From a bacterium (lineage in GTDB: Bacteria > Electryoneota > Electryoneia > Electryoneales > Electryoneaceae), in contig CAXXKJ010000002.1 of NCBI GenBank assembly GCA_963675295.2, positions 3,072,001 to 3,136,000 of the forward strand: 64,000 bases of DNA, given 5' to 3'. Each line of letters starts with the position of its first letter. Positions within the stretch are counted from its first letter, which is position 1. The translations under genes and the position numbers were made by a program. The notes below the pieces were generated by a model. The model did not search any database. It was not told the DNA's origin and saw only the letters and a program-made list of their open reading frames with translations. Below are positions 9,403 through 57,089 of the stretch, piece by piece.

Positions 9403-9469
9403 GCCGAAAGAGTTAACGATCGATTTAACCGTGAACACCGGACGATCGGTGTGAACCAGGACAGCAGAC

Positions 9470-39851: not shown

Positions 39852-39863
39852 CCGGAGGATGAG

Positions 39864-40332: not shown

Positions 40333-43164
40333 ATGAAGTTTACCACGAAAATCCTGATGATGCCGCTGGCGGCACTGCTTGCGTTGACAACGATTTTCGG
40401 GTTGTTGTGGCGCACCGGTACCACCACCCTGCAGCAGTATGACCTCATCCAGGAAGAGCACGTCCATGCTCTCGAACTCAGCCACAAGATGGAAAAGCTG
40501 GCGATTGAGATTCGCCAGAATCTTGCCGATGCAGCCACGGTCGGCGATCCGGACCGTGTCCTCGAAGCGGACAGCCTCGCACGTGAATTTCGCTCCGATC
40601 TGGAGGAATTCAAGAGCATTCCCAGTGTTGACGTCGCCAGCATCACCGTCGTCAGTGCCACCTTCAGCGAATATTACGACCACGCGCGCAACACGTCATT
40701 GCGGATGCTGGATCAGGAACTGAGTGACGACCTGATCGCGGAAGCGATCCAGATGAACGCCGACTTTGAGCAACTGGTGGACCAGCTCGATGTCGCCACT
40801 CAACGCCGTCAACAGGGCATTGCGGACGCGTTCGACGTCGCCCGCGAGAGTCTGCAACACTCGGGCAAGGGGATCAGCCTGACCATTCTCGCGTTGCTAC
40901 TGGTGTTGCTGGCAGTGTCTTTCGCAGCGATAGCGTCGGTGTTGCGTCCGCTCCGACGTTTGATGAACGCGACCGAGGCGATCACTCGTGGCGACCTGAA
41001 CGCGAACATCGATTACGACTGCAAGGACGAGATGGGTCGTTTGGCCGACTCGTTCCGGCACATGCAGACCAGCCTGATTGCGGACATCGAACGCCGCGAG
41101 AAGATGGAAGCGGCGATCCGTGACAGCGAAAAGATGTACCGTCTGCTGGCGGACAACAGTTCGGATGTCATCTGGACGATGGACCGGGAAGGCCGGTTCA
41201 CCTACTTCAGTCCGTCCGTGCATCGTCACCTCGGCTACACCCCTACCGAAGCTATCGGGCTGACGATGGAGGATCTGTTTCCGGATACCCAATGCGTCGA
41301 ATTTCGTGCGGCCACAGAACAGTTGTTTGACCGCAAGAATGTTCGTCACGATTCCGTCCAGGACACCAAGCTGCTGCGCCGCAAAGACGGCAACACCATC
41401 TGGTCGGAGATTACCGCCAACCTGTTGATCGACGAAACGGGCGAGGCGGTTGGCTTGAGCGGTGTCGCGCGTGACATCACCGACCGCAAGCTGGCACAGG
41501 AAGCGCTGCGTGAAAGCGAAGAACGGCTGCGTTCCATTTTCATGAACAGCACGCTCGGCATTTTTCGCACCACTCCGCAGGGTAAGGTTATCGCCGCGAA
41601 TCCAGCCGCTGCTGAGATGTTCGGATACGAGGACCCCGAGGAAACCGCGCGTGAGATTGACGACATCTCGCAGGAATTGTACGCGGACCCGGAAGATCGT
41701 GTCTGGGTGATGGAAGCGTTACAACTCAACGGGCAGATGAACGCCGAGCTGATGTTCCGCCGTCGTGGCGCGGACGATTCCCACTTCCCCGCTCAGCTCA
41801 ACTTGTGGACGGTAGCCAACGAAGACGGCAGCATCCGTTGCATCGAGGGCATGATCGAGGACATCACCGACCGCCGCCAGTTGCTGGAAGCGGTGCGGCA
41901 GAGCGAGGAACGGCTGCAGCTCGCGTTTGACGCCGCCAATGACGGGTTGTTTGATCACAACCTGAAGACTGGCACGATGTACCTCAGCCCACGCTATTAC
42001 AGCATGCTGGGGTATGAGCCGGGCGATTTCGAACCGAGCATGAACAAGGTCATCGAGCTGCTGCATCCGGATGATTTTGAAAAGGGCCCGCAGGCGTTCG
42101 AAAAACACCGGAAGACGGGCGAACCATACGATCTGGAAGCCCGTTTCCGTCACAAGAACGGCGAGTGGATCTGGATTCATACCCGCGGCAAGGTGGTCGA
42201 GTGGGACGAAGATGGTGAGCCGTTGCGCTTCGTCGGCACCAACGTTGACATCACCAAGCGCAAGCAGGCCGAAGAAGAGCTGAAGCTGGCGCAGCAGGAA
42301 CTGCTGGACGCCGCCCACAACGCCGGCATGGCCGAGATTGCGACCAGCGTGCTGCACAATGTCGGCAACGCATTGAACGGCGCAATCACCTCGACGACGG
42401 TGATGGATAAAACGCTGAAACACACGCGTCTCAGCCATCTCACCCGTCTCGCCGGCCTGATCGACCAGCACAAGGACGATCTCGCGAACTTCGTCGCCAC
42501 CAGCGAACAGGGCAAGAAGCTGCCGCAGTTCTTCAACCAGTTGAGCGAAGTCATTTCCGGCGAACACGCCCGCATCAAGGACGAATTAAAGTCTTTGGAG
42601 AAGAGCCACGAACACATCCGCCAGATCATCGCGCTGCAACAGCAGTATGCAGGCATGCCGGGCTACAAGGAGGATGTGTACGCGGCGGATTTGGTCAATG
42701 ACGCGGTGCAGTTGTTCGGGGCGTCGTTCCAGCGGCACAGCATCAAGTTCAAGGTCGACCGTCCGAAGAATTTGCCGGCGGTACATGTTGAAAAGCACAA
42801 GGTGCTGCAGATCCTGATTAACCTGCTGAAAAACGCGCGCGACGCGGTGCGCGACACGGATCGCAGTGACCGCGAGATCACGGTGCACATCCATCAGAAC
42901 GGCACCGATGATCTGAAGATCGAGGTGAAAGACAACGGTGTCGGGATCCGGGACGAGGACATGCAGAAGATCTTCGGCTACGGATTCACCACCAAGCGCG
43001 ACGGGCATGGTTACGGCCTGCACGGTTGCGCCAACAGTGCCCGGGAGATGGGCGGTGAACTGACAGCCAGCAGCGAAGGGGCGAACAAGGGTGCTACCTT
43101 CACGCTGACGCTTCCACTGGAAGAAACCGAGGATCAACGTGCCCGAACCGCAGACGTGGAATAA
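40333..43164 (+). CDS. Membrane sensor histidine kinase (HAMP, three PAS, HisKA, HATPase)
   Basis: Two TMs, DEMGRLADSF HAMP, three PAS/PAC (DITDRK, DITDRR, DITKRK), ATSVLHNVGNALN, QILINLLKNA, DNGVG, GHGYGLH. Confidence 0.92.
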   Translation: MKFTTKILMMPLAALLALTTIFGLLWRTGTTTLQQYDLIQEEHVHALELSHKMEKLAIEIRQNLADAATVGDPDRVLEADSLAREFRSDLEEFKSIPSVDVASITVVSATFSEYYDHARNTSLRMLDQELSDDLIAEAIQMNADFEQLVDQLDVATQRRQQGIADAFDVARESLQHSGKGISLTILALLLVLLAVSFAAIASVLRPLRRLMNATEAITRGDLNANIDYDCKDEMGRLADSFRHMQTSLIADIERREKMEAAIRDSEKMYRLLADNSSDVIWTMDREGRFTYFSPSVHRHLGYTPTEAIGLTMEDLFPDTQCVEFRAATEQLFDRKNVRHDSVQDTKLLRRKDGNTIWSEITANLLIDETGEAVGLSGVARDITDRKLAQEALRESEERLRSIFMNSTLGIFRTTPQGKVIAANPAAAEMFGYEDPEETAREIDDISQELYADPEDRVWVMEALQLNGQMNAELMFRRRGADDSHFPAQLNLWTVANEDGSIRCIEGMIEDITDRRQLLEAVRQSEERLQLAFDAANDGLFDHNLKTGTMYLSPRYYSMLGYEPGDFEPSMNKVIELLHPDDFEKGPQAFEKHRKTGEPYDLEARFRHKNGEWIWIHTRGKVVEWDEDGEPLRFVGTNVDITKRKQAEEELKLAQQELLDAAHNAGMAEIATSVLHNVGNALNGAITSTTVMDKTLKHTRLSHLTRLAGLIDQHKDDLANFVATSEQGKKLPQFFNQLSEVISGEHARIKDELKSLEKSHEHIRQIIALQQQYAGMPGYKEDVYAADLVNDAVQLFGASFQRHSIKFKVDRPKNLPAVHVEKHKVLQILINLLKNARDAVRDTDRSDREITVHIHQNGTDDLKIEVKDNGVGIRDEDMQKIFGYGFTTKRDGHGYGLHGCANSAREMGGELTASSEGANKGATFTLTLPLEETEDQRARTADVE

Positions 43165-44566
43165 CCGTCGCATTCTCCTCGTGGACGACCAGGAACAGAT
43201 CCACGAGGATTACCGCAAGATTCTCACCCCGGACGACTCCCACGGGCAGGAAGTCGACCAGCTCGCCAGCGATTTCTTCGGCGACGACGACAGCGAACCG
43301 TCCGCTGGCAACAGCAACCAAGTCGAACTCCCATCATTCCAGCTCGAATCCGCCTACCAGGGCCAGGAAGCGCTGGAAATGGTCAAACAGGCGCTGGAGG
43401 CGGGAATTCCGTACTCGCTGGCGCTGGTGGATGTGCGCATGCCGCCAGGCTGGGACGGCATCGAGACCATCGACCGCATCCTTCGTGTCGACAAGGACAT
43501 CCAGATCGTCATCTGCACCGCCTATGCAGACTATGTCTGGGAGGATATCCACGACACCTTCGGCGCGCGCGACAACATCCTCTTCATGCGCAAGCCGTTC
43601 GACGCAACCGAGGTTCAGCAGCTAGCGTGCACATTGACCGAAAAGTGGAACCTCGCACGCCAGGCGAGGATGAAGGTCGAGGAGCTGGAAACCCTCGCTG
43701 ACCAGCGTACGCGTGAATTGCAGCAGAGCAACGAGGAACTGCAGGACGCGATGACCGACCTGCGCCGGACGCAAGTGCAGTTGATTCAGTCGGAGAAGAT
43801 GGCATCATTGGGTTCGATGGTCGCCGGTGTCGCGCATGAGATCAACACGCCGATCGGTGCCGTTGCCAGCATGCACAGCACGCTCGTCACCGCGATCAAG
43901 CGCATGAACGACATCCTCAATGACATGTGCGACGAATCCGACCCGCGGCTGAAAAAGCTGGAAAAGACGATGAAGGTGATCGGCGACGCAAACCGGGTGA
44001 TTTCGTCCGGCACCGAACGTGTCACCACCATCGTCAAGCGGCTCAAGAGTTTCGCGCGGCTGGATGAGGCCGAGCTGAAGACGGTCGATATTCATCAGGG
44101 ATTGGACGATACGCTCGAAATCGCGCATCACGAACTGAAGTACGCGGTGAAAGTGGTACGGGAATACGGCGATGTGCCGGAATTCGCCTGCTACCCGAGC
44201 AAGCTGAACCAGGTGTTCCTCAACCTGTTCATGAACAGCCGCCAGGCGATTGAAACCACGGGCACGTTGACCATCCGCACCCGGGTTGAAAACAATCAGG
44301 TGGTCATCGAAGTCGCGGACACCGGCAAGGGCATCAAGGCGGAGAATCTGAAACGCATCTTCGACCCTGGGTTTACGACGAAGGGTGTCGGAGTCGGCAC
44401 CGGGCTCGGCCTGTCCATCGTGTTCCAGATCATTGAAGAACACTTCGGCACAATTGAAGCCAGCAGCGAAGTCGGGGTCGGGACGACATTTACCATCCGT
44501 TTACCGCTGGATCTGGAAGAACGCATCGAACGCAAGAAGAGGGGCGGCAAACCGCACTCTGCGTGA
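43139..44566 (+). CDS. Hybrid receiver / histidine kinase
   Basis: ILLVDD..VDVRMPPGWDG..KPF receiver; EKMASLG..AHEINTP; LNQVFLNL; GTGLGL. Confidence 0.92.
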   Translation: MPEPQTWNNRRILLVDDQEQIHEDYRKILTPDDSHGQEVDQLASDFFGDDDSEPSAGNSNQVELPSFQLESAYQGQEALEMVKQALEAGIPYSLALVDVRMPPGWDGIETIDRILRVDKDIQIVICTAYADYVWEDIHDTFGARDNILFMRKPFDATEVQQLACTLTEKWNLARQARMKVEELETLADQRTRELQQSNEELQDAMTDLRRTQVQLIQSEKMASLGSMVAGVAHEINTPIGAVASMHSTLVTAIKRMNDILNDMCDESDPRLKKLEKTMKVIGDANRVISSGTERVTTIVKRLKSFARLDEAELKTVDIHQGLDDTLEIAHHELKYAVKVVREYGDVPEFACYPSKLNQVFLNLFMNSRQAIETTGTLTIRTRVENNQVVIEVADTGKGIKAENLKRIFDPGFTTKGVGVGTGLGLSIVFQIIEEHFGTIEASSEVGVGTTFTIRLPLDLEERIERKKRGGKPHSA

Positions 44567-44729
44567 GGTGAACGGTCAATAGCGGAGCGCTCTCCGGTGC
44601 TCCCGAACGTTCCCCGGATTCCTCCCCCCCGCACATCCCGTCCTATACTCACGTTTAGCTTTTTTTCAGCCGTTTTCTACGGCACCACAGGGTTCATCAC
44701 GATCGGTTTCGATTGCGGTGGGAGAACGC

Positions 44730-46052
44730 ATGAAGCCATTCCTTAAGACTTTTTCCATTGGATTCACTGTCATCCTGCTGGCGGGTCTCGTGCTTTGTCC
44801 GGAGCGTGTTTTCGCCGGGGACGATGACACAATCTACCAGCCGTCCATGACTCACGCGGACAGCGTGAAAGCGTGGCAGGAAGCGGTAGACAACGACAAC
44901 GCGCTGGATGTCACCGGCGACGTGATCGGCGAAGTTGTCTTTATCCCGTTGCGAGTCGTGTTCACCGGTGTCCGGGAAGGCGCACGGATCGTCAGCGAGG
45001 AGCAGCTGATCGCCAAGGTGGACGATTTCCTCTCGTCCGATGATGGCACCCGCCGAGTCGTGCCAATCGCTTCGCCGACCACCGGCCTCGGCGCGAAGTT
45101 CAAGTACAAGCCGGACCCGACGATCAAGGCGAATATCGCGCTGCTCGGGGCGTGGTGGATGTACGGCCGCCAGACCTACCGTCTGCACGCCGAAAAATGG
45201 CCGTTGCTGCCGCATGTCACCGGCCACCTCGCCGGCGAATACCATCTCTATCCCGACGAACGGTTCTATGGCATCGGGATGGCGACGAAGAAGTCAGATG
45301 AAGTGTTCTACCGGCACGAAGCGACATTCGCCGAAGCCGGGCTTGGATTCGACCTGCATCGCTGGCTGGAACTGACCGCACATGGCGAATACCGCGCGAA
45401 CAACCTCTACAACAGCGTGCTGAAGCCAACCGTCAACTTCGACACCTACGGTAGTGTGCAGAACCTGGCGCCGTATTCGGGCCGGATTGACATGGCCAGC
45501 ACCACACTGGCACTCGAGTTTAACACCGCGGTCAACCGTGCACGCCCGATGAACGGTTTCGTCACCAGGGTTTCCGGCGGATATCACAACCAGGTGGATG
45601 GCGACGATTTCGGCTACTGGGACTCTCGTGTCCTGATCGGGAAATACTTCCACATCATGTACGAGCGGGTGCTGTATTTCGACATCGCCGGCCAGTTCAC
45701 CGAACCGTTGACCGATCGTGCGATTCCGTTCTTTGAATTGCCGGAGTTGGGTGGCCGGGAAACGTTACGCGGCTTCAAGCGCGGACGCTACAGCGGCGAG
45801 CACACGGTACTGGGAACGGTCGAATACCGCATGCCGATCCGTGACATCTGGTCGGAATCGGGCTTCGATTTCGCCTTCTTCGCCGACTGGGGCAAGGTTG
45901 TGCAGGATGATGTCAGCGACTGGGACATGGATTCGATGCAGATCGGGTATGGATTCAGCTTGCAAACGTGGACGCTGGCCGGTGCGGCCGCGCGTCTCGA
46001 CGTCGGTTTCAGCCGTGAAGGCACACGGCTTTACTTCACCATGGGGTTGTGA
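44730..46052 (+). CDS. Omp85/BamA-TamA-family beta-barrel without evident POTRA domains
   Basis: Signal peptide; RFYGIG; LGGRETLRGFKRGRY loop-6 motif; EYRMPI; FADWGKV; terminal LYFTMGL. Confidence 0.78.
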   Translation: MKPFLKTFSIGFTVILLAGLVLCPERVFAGDDDTIYQPSMTHADSVKAWQEAVDNDNALDVTGDVIGEVVFIPLRVVFTGVREGARIVSEEQLIAKVDDFLSSDDGTRRVVPIASPTTGLGAKFKYKPDPTIKANIALLGAWWMYGRQTYRLHAEKWPLLPHVTGHLAGEYHLYPDERFYGIGMATKKSDEVFYRHEATFAEAGLGFDLHRWLELTAHGEYRANNLYNSVLKPTVNFDTYGSVQNLAPYSGRIDMASTTLALEFNTAVNRARPMNGFVTRVSGGYHNQVDGDDFGYWDSRVLIGKYFHIMYERVLYFDIAGQFTEPLTDRAIPFFELPELGGRETLRGFKRGRYSGEHTVLGTVEYRMPIRDIWSESGFDFAFFADWGKVVQDDVSDWDMDSMQIGYGFSLQTWTLAGAAARLDVGFSREGTRLYFTMGL

Positions 46053-46054
46053 TC

Positions 46055-47719
46055 ATGAAAACTCGCGACGCCATGATTGTGCTGCTCGTTTTATTGACGC
46101 TGACAGGTTCGTGCTTCGCTGGGGCGTACACCCCTCCCCCGCCGGTGCCGGATGACAGTGCGCCAATTCCGAAGCCGGAGTTTTCCGGCGCGCTGGATGA
46201 CTTCGCGGAAGGTATCAACTACGAATTCATTTACAGCCTGAAGAATACGCTGAACATCAGCCGTCAAATCCGTTGGCTGACCGATACACCGAAGCAGGCG
46301 TTGAACGTCAACGCGTTCGGCGAGGTGGACGATAATTCGTGGTTCACCAACCGGAACGCGCTGCACCCAATGAGCCTCGACGAAATCTCTCGCGGGGCGT
46401 GCCGTGGTGACGGTCCGGACACGGAACACACGTGGATCATCAAGCGTGCGAAAGCGGAAGGTGTCACTCCCGGCTTTCACATCAAGGACGCCCGCGGCGA
46501 CCGCTACGTCATCAAGTTCGACCCGATCGGCTACGGTGGGCTGAATTCCGGCGCGGATGCCTGTGGCGCGATATTCTTTTACGCGGCAGGCTACAACGCC
46601 CCTGAGAACTACATCGTCTACTTCGATCCCTCGATCCTGCAGCTTGATCCGGACGGCGTATCGTTCACCGATTCCGATGGCCGCAAGCGGCATATGACCG
46701 AAGAGGATCTGGAGGCCGTACTGGACCGTGTCAACATTCTGCCGGACGGCCGCATCCAGTGCCTCGCCAGCAAGTACATCCAGGGCGATCTGCTCGGTCC
46801 GTTTTCGTTCAAGGGCACGCGCGAGGATGACCCCAACGACTTCGTCCCGCACCATCACCGGCGCGAGTTGCGCGGGCAGAAGGCGTTCGCGGTGTGGGTC
46901 AATCACTACGACGCCAAGGGCGCGAACTCGATGGACGCCTACGTCGGCGAAGACGGCGATGGGCATGTCGTCCACTACATGATGGACTTCGGCACCGTGC
47001 TCGGTTCGGGCGGACGCGGCCCGTATCCGCTCTTCCGTGGTTACGAGGACGAAATCCCGACTGGTCCGTTGATGCGGAAGATTGTCACCCTCGGTCTCGA
47101 TGTCCGCGACTACGAAAAGCCGGACCCGGTGCTGTATCCGAGTGTCGGCCGTTTACGCAATGCGTCACTGAACCCGGACAAGTACCGCACTGTGTTCCCG
47201 AATCCGGCGTACGACAACGCCACCGACCTCGATATGTACTGGGGTACGAAACTGGTGACGTCGTTCACCGACGAACAGATCCGGGCGATCATCGAAACTG
47301 GTCCGTATCCGCCGGGCGGGGTTGACCACCTGGTGACCGTGCTCAGCGAACGCCGTGACATCATCGGCCGCACTTACTTCGGCCGGGTCAATTGCCTTGA
47401 CCGGTTCGAGATGGCCGACACGGACGTACTCGCGTTCGACGATCTCTGGGTCGAGATGGGCTACAGCGCGGCGGACGATGTCGTGTACAAATACGAACTG
47501 CAGAATGAGGACGGCGAAGTCCTCTCCTGCGGCGAATTTGCCGGCACCGAGCTCGAGCTGCCTCTGATCCCGGACAGGCTGGGTGAACACAACCAGATAC
47601 GAGTGGAGTTGCGTCTGAAGCGGAGTGATGAAAAGAAGTTCGGGCGATACGTTCGAGTATGGCTCGAAGACGATCTCGCAGGCGGGTATCGTCTCCTCGG
47701 TGTGGAACGGGAGGAATAG
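46055..47719 (+). CDS. Exported protein with atypical protein-kinase-like (HipA/PI3K-like) motifs
   Basis: Signal peptide; KAEGVTPG (G-loop), YVIKFD (beta3 Lys), NHYDAKGAN (catalytic loop), MMDFG. Confidence 0.7.
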   Translation: MKTRDAMIVLLVLLTLTGSCFAGAYTPPPPVPDDSAPIPKPEFSGALDDFAEGINYEFIYSLKNTLNISRQIRWLTDTPKQALNVNAFGEVDDNSWFTNRNALHPMSLDEISRGACRGDGPDTEHTWIIKRAKAEGVTPGFHIKDARGDRYVIKFDPIGYGGLNSGADACGAIFFYAAGYNAPENYIVYFDPSILQLDPDGVSFTDSDGRKRHMTEEDLEAVLDRVNILPDGRIQCLASKYIQGDLLGPFSFKGTREDDPNDFVPHHHRRELRGQKAFAVWVNHYDAKGANSMDAYVGEDGDGHVVHYMMDFGTVLGSGGRGPYPLFRGYEDEIPTGPLMRKIVTLGLDVRDYEKPDPVLYPSVGRLRNASLNPDKYRTVFPNPAYDNATDLDMYWGTKLVTSFTDEQIRAIIETGPYPPGGVDHLVTVLSERRDIIGRTYFGRVNCLDRFEMADTDVLAFDDLWVEMGYSAADDVVYKYELQNEDGEVLSCGEFAGTELELPLIPDRLGEHNQIRVELRLKRSDEKKFGRYVRVWLEDDLAGGYRLLGVEREE

Positions 47720-47720
47720 A

Positions 47721-48959
47721 GTGACGCTTCAGACCTCCTCCCGGATCCTCGTTCTGACCCTCGCCGTGGCGGTGTTGCTGAACGGTTGCGCGTCAAAAGG
47801 ACTGCTCACCGACCGCTACGACGCGGACGAAGTGGCTGTACCGCGGCTACTGCCCGAGGACCTGCACAATCACAACCCGCGCTTTATCGTGATCGGCGAT
47901 GAACAGAAGGGCCGTAGAGTCATCGAGGATTTCTACCGCAAGGAGAATTGGGCGACGTGGTGGCAGCTGGCGGTTCCGTTCTACCAGATCTACCTGTTGT
48001 ACAACGGCATCTCTGGCGGGATCAATTACCTCCGGCACGTGCCGGACGCCGGTGACGAAACGCGCACCATGATGCGGGACGTGCTGTATCGTGACGCGAA
48101 GGAGTTCGGCGCGACGTTCGTCCTTGAAACCGGCGACATCGCCGCTGCGGACGGACGCTACCCCGACCACTGGGAGGTGTTTCTTGAGGGCAAGAAGTGG
48201 TCGCATCCGTTCCTGTCCGAAATTCCCTACGTGCCGACCATCGGCAATCACGAGTGGGCCAACGACACCACCTACGCGTGGCCGAACTACCAGGCGGTGT
48301 TCGACTATCCGCGATTTTACGCGATGGAATTCAAGTCAGCCGTGTTGATCGTGCTGGACTCCAATTTTCTCGTCGACCAGTGGGAGCTGATCCCGGACGA
48401 CGAGCAGGAGAAGCTGTACAAGGAATGGTTCGTCAGCGGCGAAGGTACGTCGTGGCTGGAAAAAACCCTGGCGAAGTATGCCGATAAACCGTTCAAGATT
48501 GTCAGCATGCACCACCCCCCCATTACGTACGGCTGGCACTGGGTTGACTGGTACAAGGACCATTTTGGCCGTAACCTGACAGACAAGCGTCGTGAGCTGC
48601 TGCAATTGTTCGCGGACAGTGGCGTGCAGGCCGTGTTCTCCGGACACGAACACATTTACCAGCACAATCCGACCCACCTGTTATCCGGTGGCAATACGCA
48701 CACTATCCACTTTTATACCAGCAGCGGCGGCGGAGTACCGATTCGGTCCGTGCCACCTGTCGAACAGTTGGAGGAGCTGCGGTACAAGTATCGCCAGGAA
48801 GGGTTGGGCGCTCATCAGCCAACAATCTTGAGTGAGTACCATTATTGTCTGGTGTCTGTCGAGGGTGACCGGCTGATCATCGACACGATGGTCGTGGACC
48901 GTGACGATCCAGAGCATGAATCGAGTTTGTTCGAACGGACGGTGATAGACGCACCCTGA
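47721..48959 (+). CDS. Lipoprotein calcineurin-like metallophosphoesterase
   Basis: Lipobox LNGC; GDEQ, TGD, GNHE, MHHPP, SGHEH; GTG start 1 nt after the upstream stop. Confidence 0.85.
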   Translation: MTLQTSSRILVLTLAVAVLLNGCASKGLLTDRYDADEVAVPRLLPEDLHNHNPRFIVIGDEQKGRRVIEDFYRKENWATWWQLAVPFYQIYLLYNGISGGINYLRHVPDAGDETRTMMRDVLYRDAKEFGATFVLETGDIAAADGRYPDHWEVFLEGKKWSHPFLSEIPYVPTIGNHEWANDTTYAWPNYQAVFDYPRFYAMEFKSAVLIVLDSNFLVDQWELIPDDEQEKLYKEWFVSGEGTSWLEKTLAKYADKPFKIVSMHHPPITYGWHWVDWYKDHFGRNLTDKRRELLQLFADSGVQAVFSGHEHIYQHNPTHLLSGGNTHTIHFYTSSGGGVPIRSVPPVEQLEELRYKYRQEGLGAHQPTILSEYHYCLVSVEGDRLIIDTMVVDRDDPEHESSLFERTVIDAP

Positions 48960-49020
48960 CCGGCACAACCCAATTGATCTGCCAATCGCGCTGCAATCGT
49001 TTCGAGGGGGTAACGATCGA

Positions 49021-50361
49021 ATGACCAATCCATTCCAGGTGATTTCGGGGATCAAGCGCAAGGAATTGCCGCTGGCGCTGCTGATGTTCGCGTATTTCTT
49101 CCTCGTGATCACGAGCTTCTGGATTCTCAAGCCGATCAAGAAGTCGTTGTTCATCTCGTACTACGACGTCGGCGGATTCAATCTGTTCGGCTGGCTGATG
49201 AACGCCTCCCAGGCCGAACTGCTGGCGAAAGTGCTTAACATGGTCGTCGCGGTGGTCGCGGTGACGGTGTTTACGTTGCTCGTGCGACGCATGCGACGGC
49301 AACAACTGACCTACGTTTTCTCCGCCTTTTTCATCATCAGTTACGGTCTTTACACCTTCCTGCTCTCGAACCAGAGCGGCGCGGTGGTGTGGTCATTCTA
49401 CCTCTTCGGCGACCTGTACAGCACGTTGATGGTCGCCACCTTCTTCGCGTTCATGAACGACAGCGTCAATGCCAACGAAGCAAAGCGGATGTACGGCCTG
49501 GTGGTGCTCGGCGGGGTCACCGGCGGCGTGTTTGGTACCAGTTCGCTTCGGCTGTGGATTGACGCGCTGTCGTCGTCCCAGTGGATGTGGGTCCTGATTG
49601 CGGTTGCGTTTGTGATCCTGGTGATCGCGTATGCGGCCGGCCGGCTGGTTGAAAAGCGACCGTTGACCGCGGCGCCCGCACCAGCCCCGAAGCCGAAACC
49701 AGCGAAGGACGAACAGAAATCGTCCAGCAGGAATGCGGCGTTCGAAGGCGCGGCGCTGGTGTTCCGCAGCAAGTATTTGCTGGCGATTGTGGCGATTGTC
49801 GGGTTGTACGAGATCGTCAGCACCATCCTCGACTTTCAGTTTACCGCCACAGTGGCACATTTCAAGGACGGCGCGGAGATTGGTGAACACTTTTCGACAG
49901 TGTTCGCGATCACCAACTGGACCTCGCTGCTGGTGCAATTCTTCCTCACCTCGATCATTCTGTCACGGTTCGGGGTGATGGTCGCATTATCCATCCTGCC
50001 GATGATCATGATTTTTGCGTCTGGTGGATTCCTGGCGGTGCCGATCCTGTGGATGGGCAGCATGTTGAACACGGCGGACAACGGCTTCAGCTATTCAATC
50101 AACCAGTCGGCGAAGGAAACGCTGTATGTCCCGACCGACCGTGATACGAAGTACAAGGCGAAAGCGTTCATTGACATGTTTGTCCAACGGTTCGCAAAGG
50201 CGATAGCGGTCGGAGTGTCGCTGCTGGTGACCAGCATTTTCGCGTCGTTCGAGAGTATCCGTTGGCTGTCTTTGTTCACGATTGCGATTGTCGTGCTGTG
50301 GTTGATCGCGGTACGTTATGCCGGACGGGAGTTCAAGCGGTTGACGCAGGAGTCGAAGTAA
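49021..50361 (+). CDS. NTT/TLC-family (Npt1/Npt2) nucleotide transporter
   Basis: About 12 TMs; ILKPIKKSLF, EAKRMYG, LYVP..KYKAKAFIDMFVQRFAK. Confidence 0.85.
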   Translation: MTNPFQVISGIKRKELPLALLMFAYFFLVITSFWILKPIKKSLFISYYDVGGFNLFGWLMNASQAELLAKVLNMVVAVVAVTVFTLLVRRMRRQQLTYVFSAFFIISYGLYTFLLSNQSGAVVWSFYLFGDLYSTLMVATFFAFMNDSVNANEAKRMYGLVVLGGVTGGVFGTSSLRLWIDALSSSQWMWVLIAVAFVILVIAYAAGRLVEKRPLTAAPAPAPKPKPAKDEQKSSSRNAAFEGAALVFRSKYLLAIVAIVGLYEIVSTILDFQFTATVAHFKDGAEIGEHFSTVFAITNWTSLLVQFFLTSIILSRFGVMVALSILPMIMIFASGGFLAVPILWMGSMLNTADNGFSYSINQSAKETLYVPTDRDTKYKAKAFIDMFVQRFAKAIAVGVSLLVTSIFASFESIRWLSLFTIAIVVLWLIAVRYAGREFKRLTQESK

Positions 50362-50417
50362 AAACAGACCGTGTGGTATCCGTTCTGTGATCTGGGAGTC
50401 TGGCACAGGAGGTCGTG

Positions 50418-51146
50418 ATGAAGTCGTCTCGCTGGTTTGTGATCGGTTTGGTTTTTGTGATCGGGATCGTGTTGCTGCAGCCGGTGCCGGCGCAGTCTCA
50501 GAACCGTGGCTGGGAACGGTTCTACGAGGAGAATCTCGACCATTTCGTGCAATTCGGCCTCGAGAACGGTGTCAACCTCGCATGGGCACACCGGTTCCAG
50601 GAAACGAACTTCCTGCGCTACGGGTTGGATCTGCGGCTTGAGGACGGCACTCGTGACGACAAGTGGGTCAGGCCGGACACCACCACCTGGCAAAACGAGT
50701 CGACCGATCAATTCAATATCCGGCTGCATGTCGACTACCTGAAGCCCGTTTATCCGTATGAGGCGGTTCGTCTGTATATCGGCGCGGGTCCGTTGTTTGG
50801 CTTGACTTGGTCCAACGACGAATTTTCGGAGCCGGTGGATCCAAATCTCGGCCTGCCGAACGAGAAACGCACGAGCGAGTACCAATCCTGGGAGATGGGC
50901 GCACGGGCGCTTGTCGGCGGCGAATATGCGCTCAACAGCCGTCTCAGCTTCTTCGCCGAGGTCAGCTTCGATGTTGTCCATATCTGGTCAAAAAGCGAGC
51001 AGAAGCGGAACGACCTGAGGTACGATGCCAACAGCGATTCGTATAGCATGGAATACTCGGTGTACACCGTCGAGAACAAGGACTGGGACATCGACATGAG
51101 CAACGTGATGATCGGCGTGACCTTCCGCTACGGCGAGGCACCCTGA
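50418..51146 (+). CDS. Outer-membrane beta-barrel protein (small, OmpA/OmpW-like)
   Basis: Signal peptide; RLYIGAGP, ALVGGEY, SFFAE, NVMIGVTFRY; paralog of 51527-52246. Confidence 0.75.
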   Translation: MKSSRWFVIGLVFVIGIVLLQPVPAQSQNRGWERFYEENLDHFVQFGLENGVNLAWAHRFQETNFLRYGLDLRLEDGTRDDKWVRPDTTTWQNESTDQFNIRLHVDYLKPVYPYEAVRLYIGAGPLFGLTWSNDEFSEPVDPNLGLPNEKRTSEYQSWEMGARALVGGEYALNSRLSFFAEVSFDVVHIWSKSEQKRNDLRYDANSDSYSMEYSVYTVENKDWDIDMSNVMIGVTFRYGEAP

Positions 51147-51526
51147 TCACACGGTGCTACAGTGTTGCTGTGATATAGCGTGCGTGATCCAGTCCCGGGT
51201 TGCGCACGTTTTCTCTCTCCGGGTAGCCCCGCTTTCACGCCTGTGTGTTCTTTGCCCCACAGCCGTATCCTCCGCCCCACGCCTGCCACCGGTCGATCTG
51301 GCGGATGGCTCCTCGCTGCCCGAGCCTGAGAGACTTCGCATCCTTGTTGTATGAACAAACTTGACGGCTATCTCCCTGCTTTTGGGAGTCATTGGCATCT
51401 CCTTTGCGTGCTTTTCGGGCAGAATTGGAGGGAACAACCATCGTTTTCAAGCGTTCGTCATCATCTATGGAGATTCAATTCGATTGATAGATTCGGAGGG
51501 ATTTTTTTAACTTGGAGAGGGGCATC

Positions 51527-52246
51527 ATGAACACGAAGCATGGTTTGCTTGCTGGAATCATTGTACTCTTGCTATTAGTAATGGCATTACCCGTATCTTC
51601 AGGACTTTTTGAAGACGATGAAGAGTATTACAGCGATGATCACCCGAATATGATCCAGTTTGGACTGGATGAGACGGTCACCCTGGCTTGGGCACACCGG
51701 GCGTTCGGTGAGTACCTGATCCGCTACGGTGTCGACCTCAACTATTGGGGTTCGGACGAGGAGATAACCCGGACCTACGCGGACCCGGACACGACGCTGT
51801 TCGACGCGGGTAGCGGCCACGACTATTACACCAGCCTGCATGTCGATTTCATCAAGCCGTTCGAACCTTACAAGCAGGTGCGTGTGTATGTCGGCGGTGG
51901 CCCGTTCTTCAGCTGGGGTGACCACGAAACCCGTGACAAGGTTTTGATTGATCAGGACTACAATCTCCCTGACTATTTCGCCAAATACACGACGCAAACC
52001 AGCCGTGTCGGTGCGCGTGCGCTGGTCGGCGGTGAGTTTGCGATCAATCAACGCGTTGGTGTCTTCTTCGAAACCGGGATCAAGGCGTACCAGGAATGGA
52101 AAGCGTACAACAACTACGAGAAACAGCCCCTGTTTGACCCGGTTGCTCAGTCCTACTACTATGCTGATCACAAGCGGGAGTACGATTATTCCCGTTGGAA
52201 TGTGAACATGGACAACGTGATGATCGGAATCACGTTCCGCTACTAA
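51527..52246 (+). CDS. Outer-membrane beta-barrel protein, paralog of the upstream gene
   Basis: QFGL..LAWAHR, LHVDFIKP, RVYVGGGP, ALVGGEF, NVMIGITFRY. Confidence 0.75.
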   Translation: MNTKHGLLAGIIVLLLLVMALPVSSGLFEDDEEYYSDDHPNMIQFGLDETVTLAWAHRAFGEYLIRYGVDLNYWGSDEEITRTYADPDTTLFDAGSGHDYYTSLHVDFIKPFEPYKQVRVYVGGGPFFSWGDHETRDKVLIDQDYNLPDYFAKYTTQTSRVGARALVGGEFAINQRVGVFFETGIKAYQEWKAYNNYEKQPLFDPVAQSYYYADHKREYDYSRWNVNMDNVMIGITFRY

Positions 52247-52403
52247 GTTTCAGTTGATGGATCTGTTCTGAACGCGCCCAATCGCGATTCAGACGTCACC
52301 CGGCTCCCGGATTGCCCCATGCACGGTTCGGAGCCGGGTGATTCACGTTGTACCTTGCCGTGCGAATCGAACCCCGAATTTGCAGACAGCCGAACGCGTC
52401 ATC

Positions 52404-55265
52404 ATGCAGAAACCCCTGTTGCGCAAAGCACTCAACCTCGAGCCCGGTGAGGGGAAACGGGCGGCGTTGATGTTCAGCTATATCTTCCTGCTGATCGCTA
52501 CGTTGCTCGTGGTCAAGCCGGTGCGCAACTCGCTGTTCCTCACCCATTTCGGCATTGAAATGCTGCCGTACGCGTTCCTGCTCGTGGCGGTGGTATCCGG
52601 CGTGTTCGTCGCGATTTACACCCGTGTTGCGAACAAGGTCCGGCTGGATAGATTGATCCAGTATACGCTGGGCAGCAGTGTCGCGACAATCATCATCCTC
52701 TGGCTGTTGTTGCAGCTGCACTATGAGGCCGGGTGGTTCTTCTTCCTGCTCTATGTCTGGGTGGCGATCTTCGGGGTGCTGGTCACGACACAGTTCTGGC
52801 TGCTCGCGAATTATGTGTTCAACGTCCGCGAGGCGAAACGCATCTTCGGCCTGCTCGGCGCGGGCGGGATCGCCGGTGGCATCTTCGGCGGCTATTTCAC
52901 CAATATCCTCGCCCCGTTCGCCGGTAGCGAGGACTTGCTGCTGTTTGGTGCGTTGTTCCTGATCGGGTGCATGGTGCTGGTGCAGTTTGTCTGGTCCATG
53001 GGCGCGCAGGAAGCCTACCGCGAACAGACCCAGCGCCGCCGCAAGCGTCAGAGCGCGGACTTCGAAGGCGCAAACCCACTGCAGATTGTCTTTGGTAACC
53101 GCTATTTAACCCTGCTCGCGACGCTGATTGGAATCGGTGTCATCATCGCCAACCTCGTCGACTACCAGTACAGCGCGATCGCGACTTCGGTGATTACGGA
53201 CGAGGACAAGCTGACCGCCTTCTTTGGGTTCTGGCTGTCAACGTTGAGCGTCTTCTCGCTGGTAATTCAGCTGTTGCTAACCAGCCGCGTACTGCGACGC
53301 TACGGTGTCGGCGGATCGTTGTACTTCCTCCCCGGCGGTGTTCTCGTCGGATCGATCATGGTGCTGATCTCCGGCGGATTGACCTCGGCGGTGATGATCA
53401 AGCTGTTCGAGGGCGGGTTCAAGCAGTCGATCCACAAGGCCGGGCTGGAACTGTTGTGGTTGCCGATTCCGACCTCTGTGAAGAACCGGGTCAAGGCGTT
53501 CATTGATATCTTTGTCGACAACACCGCCACCGGCATTGGCGGCCTGCTGCTGATCCTGCTCGCCGACCAGCTCGGCTGGGGAATTGGCGGGGTCAGCGGG
53601 CTGATTATCGGGCTGGTCGCGGTGTGGCTGGTGTTGAATGTGATCGTGCGGCGTGAGTACGTGCAATCCTTCCGCACGGCGATCGAAAAGCGCAGCATCC
53701 GTCTCGATCAGCAGGTGGTCAACGCCCAGGATCCGGCGCTGCTGGAAACAGTCATTCCGGCGCTGGAAACCGGCAACCAGAAGCAGGTGCTGTACGCGCT
53801 GGACCTGATCGAGCATGTGCGGCACGAGGAGATCAAGAAACGACTCACCGCCGTGTTCGAACGGCATCCCTCGCGGGATGTGATCACCCGTGTGTTGCAC
53901 AATGCGTTGCACTATGACGATCTCGACCTGCGTGACATGCTGCAGCCGTACCTGGAGCATGAGGACGCCGAGATCCGGGTCGCGGTGGTGACGTACCTGG
54001 TGACCTGGGCGGACGATCAGGCTGCGGCGTTGACGGAGCTGCTCGCCAATAACAGTGTGCGTGTGCGCATGGCGGCGCTACGTGTGACAGCAGAACTGGG
54101 AAGGCACCAGAAGAATGTCCGCACCGCAATCGATTTTCAGCGGCAGTTTGAAAGCCTGCTGATGCTGTTCGACGAACAGACGGCAGGCGAGGAACCGGAT
54201 GAGGAGTTGATCAGCGCGTTGCGTGTCGAGCTGGCGGAGGTGCTGGGTGCGGTGAACCTGCCGGAGCTGTACCCGTACCTGCACATGCTGCTCGCGGATG
54301 AGTCGGTTCCGGTGCTGCGTGCGGCGGTGCGTGCGGCAGGATCAACGCAGTCGGACGAATTCCTCTACACGCTGGTCGCGCACCTGAACACCAAGTATGT
54401 GCGCAAAACCGCCCGTGACGCGCTCGCGATGTACGGCGAGGCGCAGATCCCGATGTTCATCGATCGGCTCAACGATCCCACCGAGAACCAGTACATCCGG
54501 CTCAGCATTCCGGGCGTGCTCGCACGGATCGGGACTCAGGCCGCCGCCAAGGCGTTGCAGGACAATCTCGTCCAGGACAACATTCACTTGCGGCACGAAT
54601 GCATCCGTTCGTTGAACCGGCTGCGCAACGAGTACGAAGATCTGCGGCTCGATCGTTCGCAGCTGGACGAAAACCTGCTCGAGGAAGCGCGAACGTATTA
54701 CTTCACACTCGAGATACTGCAGCAGCAGGTGGATGGGCGGGATAGCGTTGCGTCGCGTTTCGCGTCTGAGAATTTTCCGCGTGCCCGTAAGCTGCTGGTC
54801 CGGGCGTTGGAAGAGCGGCTCGATCGTAATCTCGAGATCATCTTCCGGCTGCTGGGACTGCGTTACGTGCCGGAAGACATGAAGAACGCGTACATGCAGG
54901 TGACCGGTTTGAAAATGGACTTGCGTGCGGACGCAATCGAGTTTCTCGACAACGTGCTCGATCAGAAGTTGAAACGGGTTGTGTTGCCGATGGTGGAAAC
55001 GCCGAACGTGGATGTTAAACTCGAGCATGGACGCGAGTTGTTCAGCCACGATCCGCCGTCCGGCGAGTATTGCCTGCAGATGCTGCTCGAAGGCGACGAC
55101 GATTGGCTCAAGGTGTGTACTTTGTATGCGATCGGCGAGAGTGGTGACCGGTCGTTGAGCCCGATGGTTGAGGCGCATCTGATGGCCAGCGAGCGTATCG
55201 TTCGGGAAACAGCTGATCTCGCCTACCGCCGGCTGAATATTGAACTCGACAAGATGGGAGCGTAA
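52404..55265 (+). CDS. NTT-family nucleotide transporter fused to HEAT repeats
   Basis: VKPVRNSLFL, QFWLLANYVFNVREAKRIFG, RVKAFIDIFV; C-terminal HEAT-like repeats (EIRVAVV, VRMAALR, VLRAAVRAAG, RADAIEFLDN). Confidence 0.85.
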   Translation: MQKPLLRKALNLEPGEGKRAALMFSYIFLLIATLLVVKPVRNSLFLTHFGIEMLPYAFLLVAVVSGVFVAIYTRVANKVRLDRLIQYTLGSSVATIIILWLLLQLHYEAGWFFFLLYVWVAIFGVLVTTQFWLLANYVFNVREAKRIFGLLGAGGIAGGIFGGYFTNILAPFAGSEDLLLFGALFLIGCMVLVQFVWSMGAQEAYREQTQRRRKRQSADFEGANPLQIVFGNRYLTLLATLIGIGVIIANLVDYQYSAIATSVITDEDKLTAFFGFWLSTLSVFSLVIQLLLTSRVLRRYGVGGSLYFLPGGVLVGSIMVLISGGLTSAVMIKLFEGGFKQSIHKAGLELLWLPIPTSVKNRVKAFIDIFVDNTATGIGGLLLILLADQLGWGIGGVSGLIIGLVAVWLVLNVIVRREYVQSFRTAIEKRSIRLDQQVVNAQDPALLETVIPALETGNQKQVLYALDLIEHVRHEEIKKRLTAVFERHPSRDVITRVLHNALHYDDLDLRDMLQPYLEHEDAEIRVAVVTYLVTWADDQAAALTELLANNSVRVRMAALRVTAELGRHQKNVRTAIDFQRQFESLLMLFDEQTAGEEPDEELISALRVELAEVLGAVNLPELYPYLHMLLADESVPVLRAAVRAAGSTQSDEFLYTLVAHLNTKYVRKTARDALAMYGEAQIPMFIDRLNDPTENQYIRLSIPGVLARIGTQAAAKALQDNLVQDNIHLRHECIRSLNRLRNEYEDLRLDRSQLDENLLEEARTYYFTLEILQQQVDGRDSVASRFASENFPRARKLLVRALEERLDRNLEIIFRLLGLRYVPEDMKNAYMQVTGLKMDLRADAIEFLDNVLDQKLKRVVLPMVETPNVDVKLEHGRELFSHDPPSGEYCLQMLLEGDDDWLKVCTLYAIGESGDRSLSPMVEAHLMASERIVRETADLAYRRLNIELDKMGA

Positions 55266-55273
55266 ACCAACCG

Positions 55274-55705
55274 ATGCTGACCACGGTCGAAAAAGTCATC
55301 TTTCTGCAGGACATTGATGTCTTCCAGAGCATCAGCACGTCCGACCTCGCCTATCTCGCCGCGATCACGGAGGAGATGGAAGCGGACGAGGGCAGCGTGC
55401 TGTTCAAGGAAGGGGACGCGTCCGACTCGATGTTCATGGTGATCGAGGGCACCGTCCGCTTGCTGCGGAACGACGCCGAGGTGATGACCGCCGGGTTCAA
55501 GGACGTGTTCGGCACGTGGGCGCTGTTCGACGACGAACCGCGCATGGTTCGCGCGGAGGTGACGGAACGCGCTCGTCTGCTGCGCATCGACAAGGACGAC
55601 TTCATCGACCTGCTCGCCGATCACGTGCAGATCACCCAGGGTGTGTTCAAGGCGATGGTCGGACGTTTGCGTGGATTGGCCAGCCGTTTCAACAAGCAGG
55701 ACTAG
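55274..55705 (+). CDS. Stand-alone cyclic-nucleotide-binding domain protein
   Basis: VEKVIFLQDIDVF, LFKEGD, MFMVIEGTV, FGTWALFDDEPR. Confidence 0.88.
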   Translation: MLTTVEKVIFLQDIDVFQSISTSDLAYLAAITEEMEADEGSVLFKEGDASDSMFMVIEGTVRLLRNDAEVMTAGFKDVFGTWALFDDEPRMVRAEVTERARLLRIDKDDFIDLLADHVQITQGVFKAMVGRLRGLASRFNKQD

Positions 55706-55854
55706 AGTTTCCCACCTTCCCAGGTTCTCCGTGGAGCGCCCCGCTCCGGGCTCAAAGTTCCGCTCGGGCGATCCTCTTTCCCCTATCTTAGCGTCATTCT
55801 CGTTGATCGTGAACGGGGTGTCTGTACTCCCCCCAGCAGGTGTCGGAGGCTGTG

Positions 55855-56331
55855 ATGAATGAAGAGGAACTGACGATTGTCGTTGTGGACGATGAGGAGA
55901 TGGTGGTCTCCAGCATCGAATCGTTCCTCTCCCTGGAAACGGAATACAACGTCGAAACCTTCACCTCGGCGAAGGATGCGCTGGCGTATATCGAGAAGAA
56001 CGAGATCGATCTCGTGGTCTCGGACTACCTGATGCCGGAGATGAACGGCATCCAGTTCCTCGGCCAGGTTCGCAAGCTGCAGCCGAACACGCCGCGCATC
56101 ATCCTCACCGGTTACGCCGACAAGGAAAACGCGATCAAGGCGATCAACGAGGTCGGCCTGTTCCAGTACATCGAGAAGCCGTGGGAAAATGAGGATCTGC
56201 TGATCATTTTCCGCAACGCGCTGGAGAAGAAACGGTTGATGGAACAGTTGAAGGAAAAAATCGACCAGATCAACAAAGCCTACACCGATTTCAACGATCT
56301 GCAGAAGGAGATCGTGAAGACGTTTATTTGA
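55855..56331 (+). CDS. Response regulator (receiver plus short coiled coil)
   Basis: VVVDDE, SDYLMPEMNG, ILTGYAD, EKPW. Confidence 0.9.
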   Translation: MNEEELTIVVVDDEEMVVSSIESFLSLETEYNVETFTSAKDALAYIEKNEIDLVVSDYLMPEMNGIQFLGQVRKLQPNTPRIILTGYADKENAIKAINEVGLFQYIEKPWENEDLLIIFRNALEKKRLMEQLKEKIDQINKAYTDFNDLQKEIVKTFI

Positions 56332-56584
56332 AAGCCATTAAGGGGCACTCCTGCTCTGGTATCATCGCGTGCGTACTTCACCGATCCCATACGATCCTTT
56401 AATGCGGGCAAGAAATTGTCTATGACTATTATTCTCAATTGTTTCATTGTATATTTCCTCTAAGAGCCTAGTTAGGTATACTTATCTGTTACCCCCCCCC
56501 CCATGACTCGCTCATTATATATGCATCTATTAGACATCCATGCACGGCGGGTGCGTGGAAATACTAGTAGAGGGGGAAAATCTC

Positions 56585-56986: not shown

Positions 56987-57003
56987 GTTCTAGAGAAATT
57001 CAA

Positions 57004-57040
57004 TAGAAGTAGATAGGATCTTTGATTCTATCTACTTCTA
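57004..57040. terminator. AT-rich hairpin between the two islet genes
   Basis: tagaagtagatagga..ttctatctacttcta; no clear U tract. Confidence 0.45.
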
Positions 57041-57089
57041 CTCTCTCTATTAGTTTCTAACCCAAATATAAGCCATACTGGAGATAAAC

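Follow-up and report, generated by a model that had tools for sequence, protein, structure and literature searches.

An exported kinase-like protein genomically coupled to NTT nucleotide carriers: a candidate envelope phosphorylation module in Electryoneota

The periplasm is taught as an ATP-free compartment, and the biology of the bacterial envelope is explained by ATP-free chemistry. What is to be made of a locus in which a signal-peptide protein with the motifs of a kinase is encoded beside two carriers of the NTT/TLC family? This question is raised by a gene cluster on a 64,000-nucleotide stretch of an Electryoneota genome (assembly GCA_963675295.2, contig CAXXKJ010000002.1, forward-strand positions 3,072,001 to 3,136,000), the whole of which is called the window here, with positions counted from its first letter. 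The cluster encodes an Omp85 outer-membrane barrel, an exported kinase-like (lipo)protein (PKL), a lipoprotein metallophosphoesterase (MPE), a plain NTT (NTT1), an NTT fused to HEAT repeats (NTT-HEAT), a cNMP-binding protein and two-component regulators. Judged by its gene content, it may be an envelope phosphorylation module that supplies itself with nucleotide, in which ATP is exported to a periplasmic kinase/phosphoesterase pair. We hold this reading tentatively, with a little less than even confidence. An exported kinase that is predicted to be catalytically intact, in a conserved pairing with nucleotide carriers, challenges the view of an ATP-free periplasm and provides a candidate for periplasmic ATP supply, for bacterial envelope phosphorylation and for what the NTT-HEAT proteins of free-living bacteria do. 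Should ATP not be exported, two results would still stand: a new kinase-fold family, large and with an Omp85 dedicated to it, and its strict genomic coupling to NTT carriers.

An exported protein with an atypical kinase fold

The PKL (556 amino acids) has no significant match in Pfam, NCBIfam or the PDB, searched by sequence and by profile, and the window protein hits no Pfam family at E<=0.01. Among the candidates scored, 741 homologues were recovered at E<=1e-3, and every named one is called hypothetical. The protein, for which an AlphaFold2 model (pLDDT 89.1, pTM 0.88) was made, has an N-terminal signal and lipobox, a conserved N-terminal region (SSWFTNRN), a kinase domain at about 115-447 and an FN3-like sandwich at 448-544, the last with Z values of 8-9.3 in VIA-align. 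When the model was searched with Foldseek, all ten matches at E<=1e-3 were kinases, namely CtkA (E 2.4e-4, probability 1.00), Fam20C (probability 0.97-0.99) and Golgi casein kinase. A VIA-align search of 48,161 chains, independent of Foldseek, returned kinases in all of its top 14 rows (Z 10.2-14.2). The best was Helicobacter pylori CtkA (Z 14.2, 222 residues aligned, root-mean-square deviation 3.7), followed by Fam20C (12.7), Hydra Fam20 (12.4), PI4KII-alpha (12.2), CotH (12.1), actin-fragmin kinase (11.5), HipA (11.0), HipT (10.8) and MavQ (10.3). CtkA and Fam20C are secreted or lumenal kinases.

The residues expected of a working kinase are conserved. In an alignment of 121 sequences G138, G142, K156, H268, R272, E273, R275, D288, K290, N293 and G315 are invariant, D313 is kept in 120, and position 170 is E in 114 and D in 7. 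The order and spacing of the invariant residues match the beta3 lysine, the HxDxKxxN catalytic loop and the DFG motif of kinases, the catalytic roles having been assigned from motif order together with an hhalign register with Pkinase that is statistically non-significant. The original prediction had read kinase motifs in the protein at 46055-47719, and both the conservation of these motifs among homologues and the kinase fold of the model bear it out.

Sequence comparison places the protein in no named kinase family. Weak matches to HipA_2 were found in 7 of 31 homologues, always at PKL residues ~117-210. The best named-family score in the family, again to HipA_2, was E 0.01 (15.5 bits, the cut-off being 27), and none of 32 members reached the gathering cut-off of HipA_2, HipA_C, Fam20C, CotH or Pkinase. 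With hhalign the catalytic part of the PKL scored 24.2 against the HipA_2 profile (P 0.008, probability 5%), a value that narrowly tops all 14 controls. Several related comparisons were set aside. A greedy alignment of the full-length PKL with HipA_2 (23.8) was discarded, as the unrelated Omp85 and MPE scored 24.9 and 37.8. Alignment of A1 with a single HipA_2 sequence gave a probability of 0.7%. The comparison of the catalytic part with Pkinase (15.3, P 0.24, shuffles reaching 24.1) was underpowered, its positive control of HipA_2 against Pkinase scoring only 20.1, and a feature search on the homologue P0009, with kinase families at 0.79-0.85 only, provided leads and not evidence. Because the modelled structure has the kinase fold and the thresholds of all named-family hidden Markov models are missed, the PKL is, on the strength of the model, a new unnamed family within the atypical kinase fold.

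The protein is predicted to be exported, as the original prediction had proposed, and mostly as a lipoprotein. A strict lipobox is present in 98 of 121 sequences, and the remainder have variant lipoboxes, truncated N-termini or SPI-type signal peptides. An acidic stretch after the lipobox cysteine marks surface lipoproteins, by a rule from Bacteroidota. Two or more acidic residues after this cysteine were found in 0 of the 98 strict-lipobox PKLs.

Some outlying members of the family may be mentioned here. Distant paralogues with 31-35% identity are P0122, G008:C1:1452167-1453756 and G005:C165:24367-25905. When fused forms of the PKL were sought, one longer relative was found, P0122 itself (Acidobacteriota, 1160 amino acids), which was uninformative; it has lost the equivalents of K156 and D288 and carries a 600-residue extension that hits no Pfam family. 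P0122 may stand for a pseudokinase branch. Among Calditrichia matches with in-frame stops, the N-terminal part of the L064 protein is stop-free, and the counted stop is probably the terminal codon of the gene.

Genomic coupling of the PKL to an Omp85 barrel and to NTT carriers

The genes of the cluster, all on the plus strand, are as follows.

40333..43164, +: HK1, a membrane sensor histidine kinase (HK; Pfam, hydropathy, HK orthologues elsewhere)
43139..44566, +: HK2, a cytoplasmic hybrid histidine kinase, REC-HisKA-HATPase (Pfam)
44718..46052, +: Omp85 barrel, POTRA-less, start possibly ATG 44730 (Pfam Omp85, 1.3e-15)
46049..47719, +: PKL, predicted exported kinase-like (lipo)protein, 556 amino acids (AlphaFold model; no Pfam family)
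47721..48959, +: MPE, lipoprotein metallophosphoesterase (Pfam Metallophos, 9.6e-11)
49021..50361, +: NTT1, plain NTT/TLC inner-membrane carrier, 446 amino acids (Pfam TLC, 3.5e-28)
50415..51146, +: bb1, small signal-peptide protein, probable outer-membrane beta-barrel (no Pfam family)
51512..52246, +: bb2, a paralogue of bb1 (no Pfam family)
52338..55265, +: NTT-HEAT, carrier with HEAT repeats, true start possibly downstream (TLC 9.5e-12, HEAT_2 6.4e-19)
55274..55705, +: stand-alone cytoplasmic cNMP-binding-domain protein (Pfam cNMP_binding, 7e-16)
55840..56331, +: response regulator (RR), a single REC domain, last gene of the cluster (Pfam Response_reg, 7.4e-28)

The co-oriented run of open reading frames (ORFs) occupies 43.1-56.3 kb of the window, and its genes are tightly packed. 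The Omp85 stop codon TGA lies at 46050-46052 and the PKL starts at GTG 46049 or ATG 46055; the PKL stop TAG is at 47717-47719, and a GGGAGG at 47709-47714 lies ahead of the MPE start GTG 47721. The cNMP gene lies 9 nt 3' of NTT-HEAT. The eight ORFs from Omp85 to the cNMP gene that made up the predicted cluster are present, with the junctions described, in the ORF list and on reading of the sequence; as an account of the cluster's extent this held for the core genes and fell short in omitting HK2 and the RR, which are recurrent members. A strong terminator-like hairpin with a 14-bp stem lies 3' of bb1 (51177-51210, +), and because of it the cluster may consist of two transcription units, one from HK2 to bb1, the other from bb2 to RR.

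At least 551 PKL loci were confirmed in one-genome-per-species collections. Their taxon labels, which for metagenome-assembled genomes are only rough, include Zixibacteria, Calditrichota, KSB1, Latescibacterota, Fibrobacterota, Acidobacteriota and others. Eighty loci were examined with up to 10 kb on each side, and all of their 1017 ORFs, called as longest ORFs so that starts and small genes are approximate, were clustered. Just seven ORF families recur in more than 7 of the 80 loci, and they are PKL (78), Omp85 (68), NTT (44), MPE (29), cNMP (28), HK (25) and RR (23). When only the 38 loci flanked by 8 kb or more to either side are considered, the corresponding counts are Omp85 35, NTT 25, MPE 18, cNMP 18, HK 18 and RR 17. 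The median gaps between cluster genes are 6-109 nt. Four layouts were seen: the full cluster as in the window, one with NTT-HEAT as sole carrier, an acidobacterial Omp85-PKL-NTT-MPE arrangement and a bare Omp85-PKL pair. An NTT gene is present in 40 of the 64 loci that have at least 3 kb downstream, so that the expected linkage of PKL homologues to NTT genes is found in cis and, as described below, genome-wide as well. In a FastTree phylogeny of 76 PKLs (45 rows linked to an NTT, 15 unlinked) the linkage occurs in both of the major clades and across many phyla, and its distribution requires a minimum of 7-10 changes. The linkage is old and has been kept repeatedly, and is no accident of a single lineage. 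Chance adjacency of the cluster genes is ruled out by the recurrence of the seven families, the locus counts and the PKL tree. At one Calditrichia locus (L062, 8643-14872) Omp85, PKL, MPE, cNMP, HK and RR are kept and the NTT is missing between MPE and cNMP, as if the carrier had recently been lost or moved elsewhere.

The coupling extends beyond adjacency. Among 79 genomes of the window's phylum, 17 have both a PKL and a TLC gene, 5 the PKL only, 1 TLC only and 56 neither; in a second phylum of 86 genomes (centre genome Calditrichia) the numbers are 16, 2, 1 and 67, the genomes in these counts being related and thus non-independent. Thus, 33 of the 35 TLC-positive genomes of both phyla are PKL-positive, and a TLC match was found in 0 of 14 control genomes. 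In three of the five PKL-only genomes of the window's phylum the PKL is cut by a contig end. Where no NTT lies within 10 kb of the PKL, a TLC gene was found elsewhere in 9 of 10 genomes, mostly of the 930-990 residue NTT-HEAT type. In 7 of these 9 no PKL adjoins the TLC gene and in 2 the TLC gene lies beside a second PKL; on the complete chromosome G084, over 1 Mb separates PKL and NTT. NTT-HEAT is solitary in such genomes or is accompanied by cNMP, RR and sometimes HK. The cytoplasmic regulators go with the carrier. PKL and NTT are coupled genome-wide, even when they are not adjacent.

The most constant neighbour of the PKL is the Omp85 gene. In 62 of the 69 loci with at least 1.5 kb upstream it is the gene immediately before the PKL, in the same orientation. 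The protein has a signal peptide, a helical N-terminal segment at about 45-101 and then 16 strands (model pLDDT 81), and its model matches the BamA barrel 5or1 (Foldseek, E 6e-12) and also the TamA barrel. No POTRA family was found by Pfam in the whole protein or in residues 1-194, and the model has only helices at 45-101, which agrees with the original description of a POTRA-less barrel (Pfam Omp85 1.3e-15). R347 and G348, the RG of the loop-6 region, are invariant, and a [ST]-x-D-G motif is conserved near residue 103. The PKL-type Omp85 subfamily is present, at one place per genome, in 21 of the 79 genomes of the window's phylum, and all but one of these (20 of 21) have a PKL. This Omp85 is the dedicated partner of the PKL. 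The adjacency of the genes suggests that the two proteins may also pair physically. One genome of the phylum (G054, 87% complete) has a TLC gene together with a weakly matching Omp85 of the PKL type (9.7e-39) and no PKL match; it is the sole such genome, and either its assembly is incomplete or it carries a variant system.

A dedicated outer-membrane partner might suggest that the Omp85 displays or releases the PKL at the cell surface, where it would act, like CtkA, on extracellular or neighbouring-cell targets, the link to the NTT being indirect. The closest structure to the PKL is indeed the secreted kinase CtkA, relatives of Omp85 translocate partner proteins, and the Foldseek matches of the Omp85 model include the BamA-RcsF structure 6t1w, in which BamA presumably holds the lipoprotein RcsF within its barrel. 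However, the Omp85 lacks POTRA domains and the acidic surface-export motif, as defined in Bacteroidota, is absent from all 98 PKLs; moreover, surface display leaves the genome-wide co-occurrence of PKL and NTT unexplained. We consider this explanation improbable. The suggestion that the Omp85 serves as an export route is likewise unlikely, because there is no POTRA.

Nucleotide carriers and the proposed ATP supply

Both carriers exceed the Pfam TLC cut-off of 21 bits, NTT1 with 99.1 bits and NTT-HEAT with 44.9 bits, the latter with HEAT_2 in addition. Their closest solved relatives are ADP,ATP carriers. NTT1 matches the plastid ADP,ATP carrier structures 9j3j (3.3e-11) and 9j3n (3.9e-9) and NTT-HEAT matches 9j3j (7.9e-9) as well as alphaRep HEAT proteins. 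A crude hydropathy scan finds 9 transmembrane segments in NTT1 and 11 in NTT-HEAT, against the ~12 helices of the family. NTT-HEAT consists of a carrier domain (~1-450) and a HEAT-repeat domain predicted to be cytoplasmic. It is the commonest NTT partner of the PKL, a type of 880-1040 residues being found in single-NTT loci and in most of the genomes in which PKL and NTT lie apart. NTT1 is an accessory partner, seen in the full type of cluster. In the passages of Major, Embley and Williams (2017, PMC5381601) that concern them, proteins of the NTT-HEAT type with an adjacent cyclic-nucleotide-binding domain (cNBD) are described as widespread and uncharacterised, and no function is given.

The envelope phosphorylation module would work as follows. 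NTTs are counter-exchangers, and the periplasm makes no ATP. Because of the latter, the NTTs would export ATP; because they counter-exchange and the cell makes its own ATP, the nucleotide would be expected to flow outward. The two carriers would run like the mitochondrial ADP/ATP carrier, with cytoplasmic ATP moving out and periplasmic ADP, plus inorganic phosphate, moving in. The PKL, docked to the Omp85, would be held at the periplasmic side of the outer membrane and would phosphorylate an envelope substrate, which might be the Omp85, another envelope protein, or a lipopolysaccharide (LPS), glycan or lipid head group. The MPE would strip this phosphate or clear spent nucleotide, and a PAP2 phosphatase, where present, might act likewise. 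The HEAT domain of NTT-HEAT would serve as a cytoplasmic docking platform, on which the cNMP protein and the phosphorylated RR would open or close what is a costly leak.

The remoteness of the carriers from their characterised relatives allows a different assignment of the cosubstrate. The carriers might move GTP, UTP, NAD, SAM, a nucleotide sugar or some other nucleotide-like molecule, with the PKL acting as a transferase that uses it; or NTT-HEAT might chiefly be a regulated sensor (a "transceptor"), with only NTT1 transporting. Atypical kinase folds also catalyse AMPylation or glutamylation, and NTT-HEAT is so far uncharacterised, the term being rare in the literature searched. NTT family members with other substrates are described in the relevant passages of PMC5381601. 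This explanation is at odds with the invariant K156, D288xKxxN293 and D313FG, which are the classic apparatus of ATP/Mg phosphotransfer, and with the nearest structures to the PKL, which are ATP-dependent kinases. We regard it as unlikely.

The MPE raises a further alternative. It exceeds the cut-off of Metallophos (PF00149, the calcineurin-like metallophosphoesterases) with 42.9 bits against 21.5; its lipobox cysteine is at least 90% conserved, and the motifs D / GD..DG / GNH / H / GH.H are kept in the window protein and 23 orthologues, so that its designation as a lipoprotein metallophosphoesterase is sound. Its PDB matches are purple acid phosphatase (2e-4) and GpdQ (7e-3), and it is a candidate phosphate eraser or nucleotide hydrolase. 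In 7 loci, including L026, L028, L036 and L083, a PAP2-superfamily phosphatase (PF01569, 6.5e-17, L028:7300-8331) lies between HK and Omp85, a hint that the system may also act on lipid phosphate or LPS phosphate. These enzymes might instead serve the scavenging of nucleotides or organophosphates, in which the MPE (and PAP2) would digest external nucleic acids or nucleotides, the NTTs would import nucleotides for phosphorus or energy, and the PKL and Omp85 would capture or process the substrate. The resemblance of the MPE to acid phosphatases and phosphodiesterases, the PAP2 gene and a weak PstS-like fragment upstream of the cluster (39864-40292, E 4.9e-5, under the Pfam cut-off) are in line with such a role, and the characterised NTTs dealt with in PMC5381601 all import nucleotides. 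Scavenging, however, needs no intact exported kinase, and yet the PKL is the most constant member of the system, and the MPE, found in 18 of 38 loci, can be dispensed with. Nor would a general nutrient importer be expected to be nearly confined to PKL-positive genomes (33/35). Finally, the cNMP protein, the HEAT domain and the REC-only regulator would point to post-translational gating, whereas uptake is usually controlled transcriptionally. In our estimate scavenging is unlikely, on a level with the use of a different cosubstrate.

The cNMP protein, a putative gating component of the phosphorylation module, scores 58.4 bits against the PF00027 cut-off of 27.5. The canonical phosphate-binding cassette of this domain is FGE ... 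R[ST]A, while in the 28 aligned proteins it is the noncanonical G[ST]WALF...R, in which the Arg alone is kept. The domain is thus present as first reported, and its proposed role in gating by a cyclic nucleotide is uncertain because the canonical phosphate-binding residues are absent from the 28 orthologues. The RR is 61-74% identical across phyla. HK1 has 2 transmembrane segments ~160 residues apart, HAMP, three PAS domains and a HATPase, and its gene overlaps that of HK2. Among the 80 loci L013, a close relative, is alone in matching it over the full length. The counterpart of HK1 and HK2 in other lineages is a single large cytoplasmic REC-(PAS/GAF)n-HisKA-HATPase protein of up to 1882 residues, and an ORF of the HK family, where present, usually lies directly upstream of Omp85. 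The small proteins bb1 and bb2 (243/244 residues) are paralogues with 33% identity and both have signal peptides; bb1 has only a weak match to OMP_b-brl_2 (E 0.1). Among the 80 loci they recur solely in two close relatives, L013 and L051. They are lineage-specific and stand outside the conserved system, and the scaffold, export-route or substrate roles suggested for them are not supported.

How well does the phosphorylation module fare as a whole? In its favour are the kinase fold of the PKL, its invariant catalytic residues and predicted export, the recurrent neighbourhood, the coupling to NTTs in cis, in trans and genome-wide, and the lipoprotein MPE; in addition, each NTT has an ADP,ATP carrier as its closest solved relative (E 3e-11 and 8e-9). 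Several observations weigh against it. These relatives are remote (E 1e-9 to 1e-11), and in NCBIfam both carriers fall under the cut-off of 387.2 for TIGR00769, the NTP/NDP exchange transporter, with 83.9 bits for NTT1 and 34.1 for NTT-HEAT. The NTT family also includes NAD, SAM and H+-coupled nucleotide importers, and ATP, being a small molecule, could be lost through general porins. The structural relatives of the PKL phosphorylate proteins, glycans or lipids, so that the class of possible substrates is wide. MPE, cNMP, HK and RR have each been found in no more than roughly half of the full-flank loci (17-18/38), and the cNMP cassette, as noted, is noncanonical. A TLC match is absent from 7 of the 40 PKL-positive genomes of the two phyla, in 3 of which the PKL is cut by a contig end; no TLC match was found on the complete 3.8-Mb chromosome G086, which has two PKL copies. 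Of the original interpretation, then, the NTT linkage, the export, the kinase fold and the MPE are supported, the parts given to the small barrels are not, and that of the Omp85 as an export route is unlikely. A broader proposal is doubtful. Some diderms may energise their periplasm by exporting ATP through regulated NTTs, and the Omp85, PKL and phosphoesterase would then reversibly phosphorylate the envelope as a bacterial counterpart of the secretory kinases; the NTT-HEAT(-cNBD) proteins of cyanobacteria, chlamydiae and others would be gated ATP exporters and not importers.

The surroundings of the cluster were also inspected. A reading as an anti-phage defence system was rejected, since PADLOC returned no match for Omp85, PKL, MPE, NTT1, bb1 or bb2 and gave only generic domain matches for the HEAT, cNMP and REC proteins. 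No RNA families were found in an Rfam search of the window. Upstream and in the same orientation, a PAS and sigma-54 activator is encoded at 36948-38432; the region 36948-40292 also holds a 466-residue protein that belongs to no family and the 142-residue protein with the weak PstS-like match, and this trio is common to L013 only. Directly 3' of the cluster is a stretch of low GC content (56001-59069; 0.40 at 56001-58000 against ~0.58 elsewhere), which may be acquired DNA. It contains genes for a 148-residue membrane-anchored protein of no family (56540-56986) and for a 659-residue protein with a C-terminal sorting domain of the type IX secretion system (T9SS; 57090-59069, +). The sorting domain (Por_Secre_tail) occurs in this protein and in two others, at 2048-5221 (-) and 27405-29627 (-); among the three, one has Peptidase_C10 and FG-GAP and another a choice-of-anchor I domain. 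Judging from these three domains, the organism has type IX secretion, in keeping with the FCB group. Genes for a carboxyl transferase (4965-6866) and for the beta subunit of a Na+-transporting oxaloacetate decarboxylase (9470-10615) suggest that the region 4965-10615 encodes a sodium-pumping decarboxylase. Elsewhere in the same genome, ~230 kb downstream of the window, six tandem Pkinase (PF00069) genes lie within 13 kb (G000:C2:3364349-3376930).

Comparison with known systems

No description of a system of PKL, Omp85 and NTT was found in the literature searched, which left most subscription journals outside its coverage. Within that same coverage, the earlier impression that no characterised system has such a composition was upheld. 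There are several partial likenesses.

The PKL itself may be compared with H. pylori CtkA and with HipA-like proteins (HipA_2 / HipA_C), CtkA being its best structural match and HipA_2 being weakly matched by 7 of 31 homologues. Unlike a member of these families, it misses every sequence threshold (best E 0.01; hhalign probability 5%); it has double the length, a conserved region at the N-terminus, an FN3-like C-terminal domain and a lipoprotein signal, and its gene context holds no HipB-type antitoxin. The Omp85 shares with BamA and TamA a 16-strand barrel and the invariant RG of the loop-6 region. It differs from them in lacking POTRA domains, in its helical N-terminus and in being nearly confined to PKL-positive genomes (20/21).

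The carriers may be compared with two groups. With the NTT-HEAT(-cNBD) proteins of free-living bacteria they share the NTT-HEAT fusion and a cNMP gene a few nucleotides downstream. In the passages of PMC5381601 on those proteins, no link to a kinase, Omp85 or phosphoesterase is drawn, whereas here NTT-HEAT is tied to the PKL both in cis and genome-wide. With the ATP/ADP translocases of Chlamydia, Rickettsia and plastids (NTT1/AATP1) they share the Pfam TLC family, and the solved structures nearest to them belong to this group. Unlike these, they show remote identity and miss the NCBIfam cut-off, and their hosts are free-living, with genomes of 3-8 Mb; the direction of transport that we propose, with ATP moving outward, would be the reverse.

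The closest parallel to the proposed arrangement as a whole lies in eukaryotes, where AXER/SLC35B1 (PMC6113206, PMC12267056) is the lumenal ATP/ADP exchanger of the secretory pathway. The differences are considerable. The Pfam Fam20C model matches none of 32 PKL sequences, the eukaryotic carrier belongs to SLC35 and not to NTT/TLC, the compartment is a lumen and not a periplasm, and there are no counterparts of the Omp85, the MPE or the two-component proteins. The secretory kinase pathway may therefore be taken as an analogy and not as a shared system. Fam20C is near to the PKL in structure (Z 12.7, Foldseek probability 0.97-0.99), and Fam20C, the Golgi casein kinase, served by AXER, is a kinase in a compartment without ATP of its own, fed by a membrane ATP/ADP exchanger, as the PKL would be by its NTT carriers.

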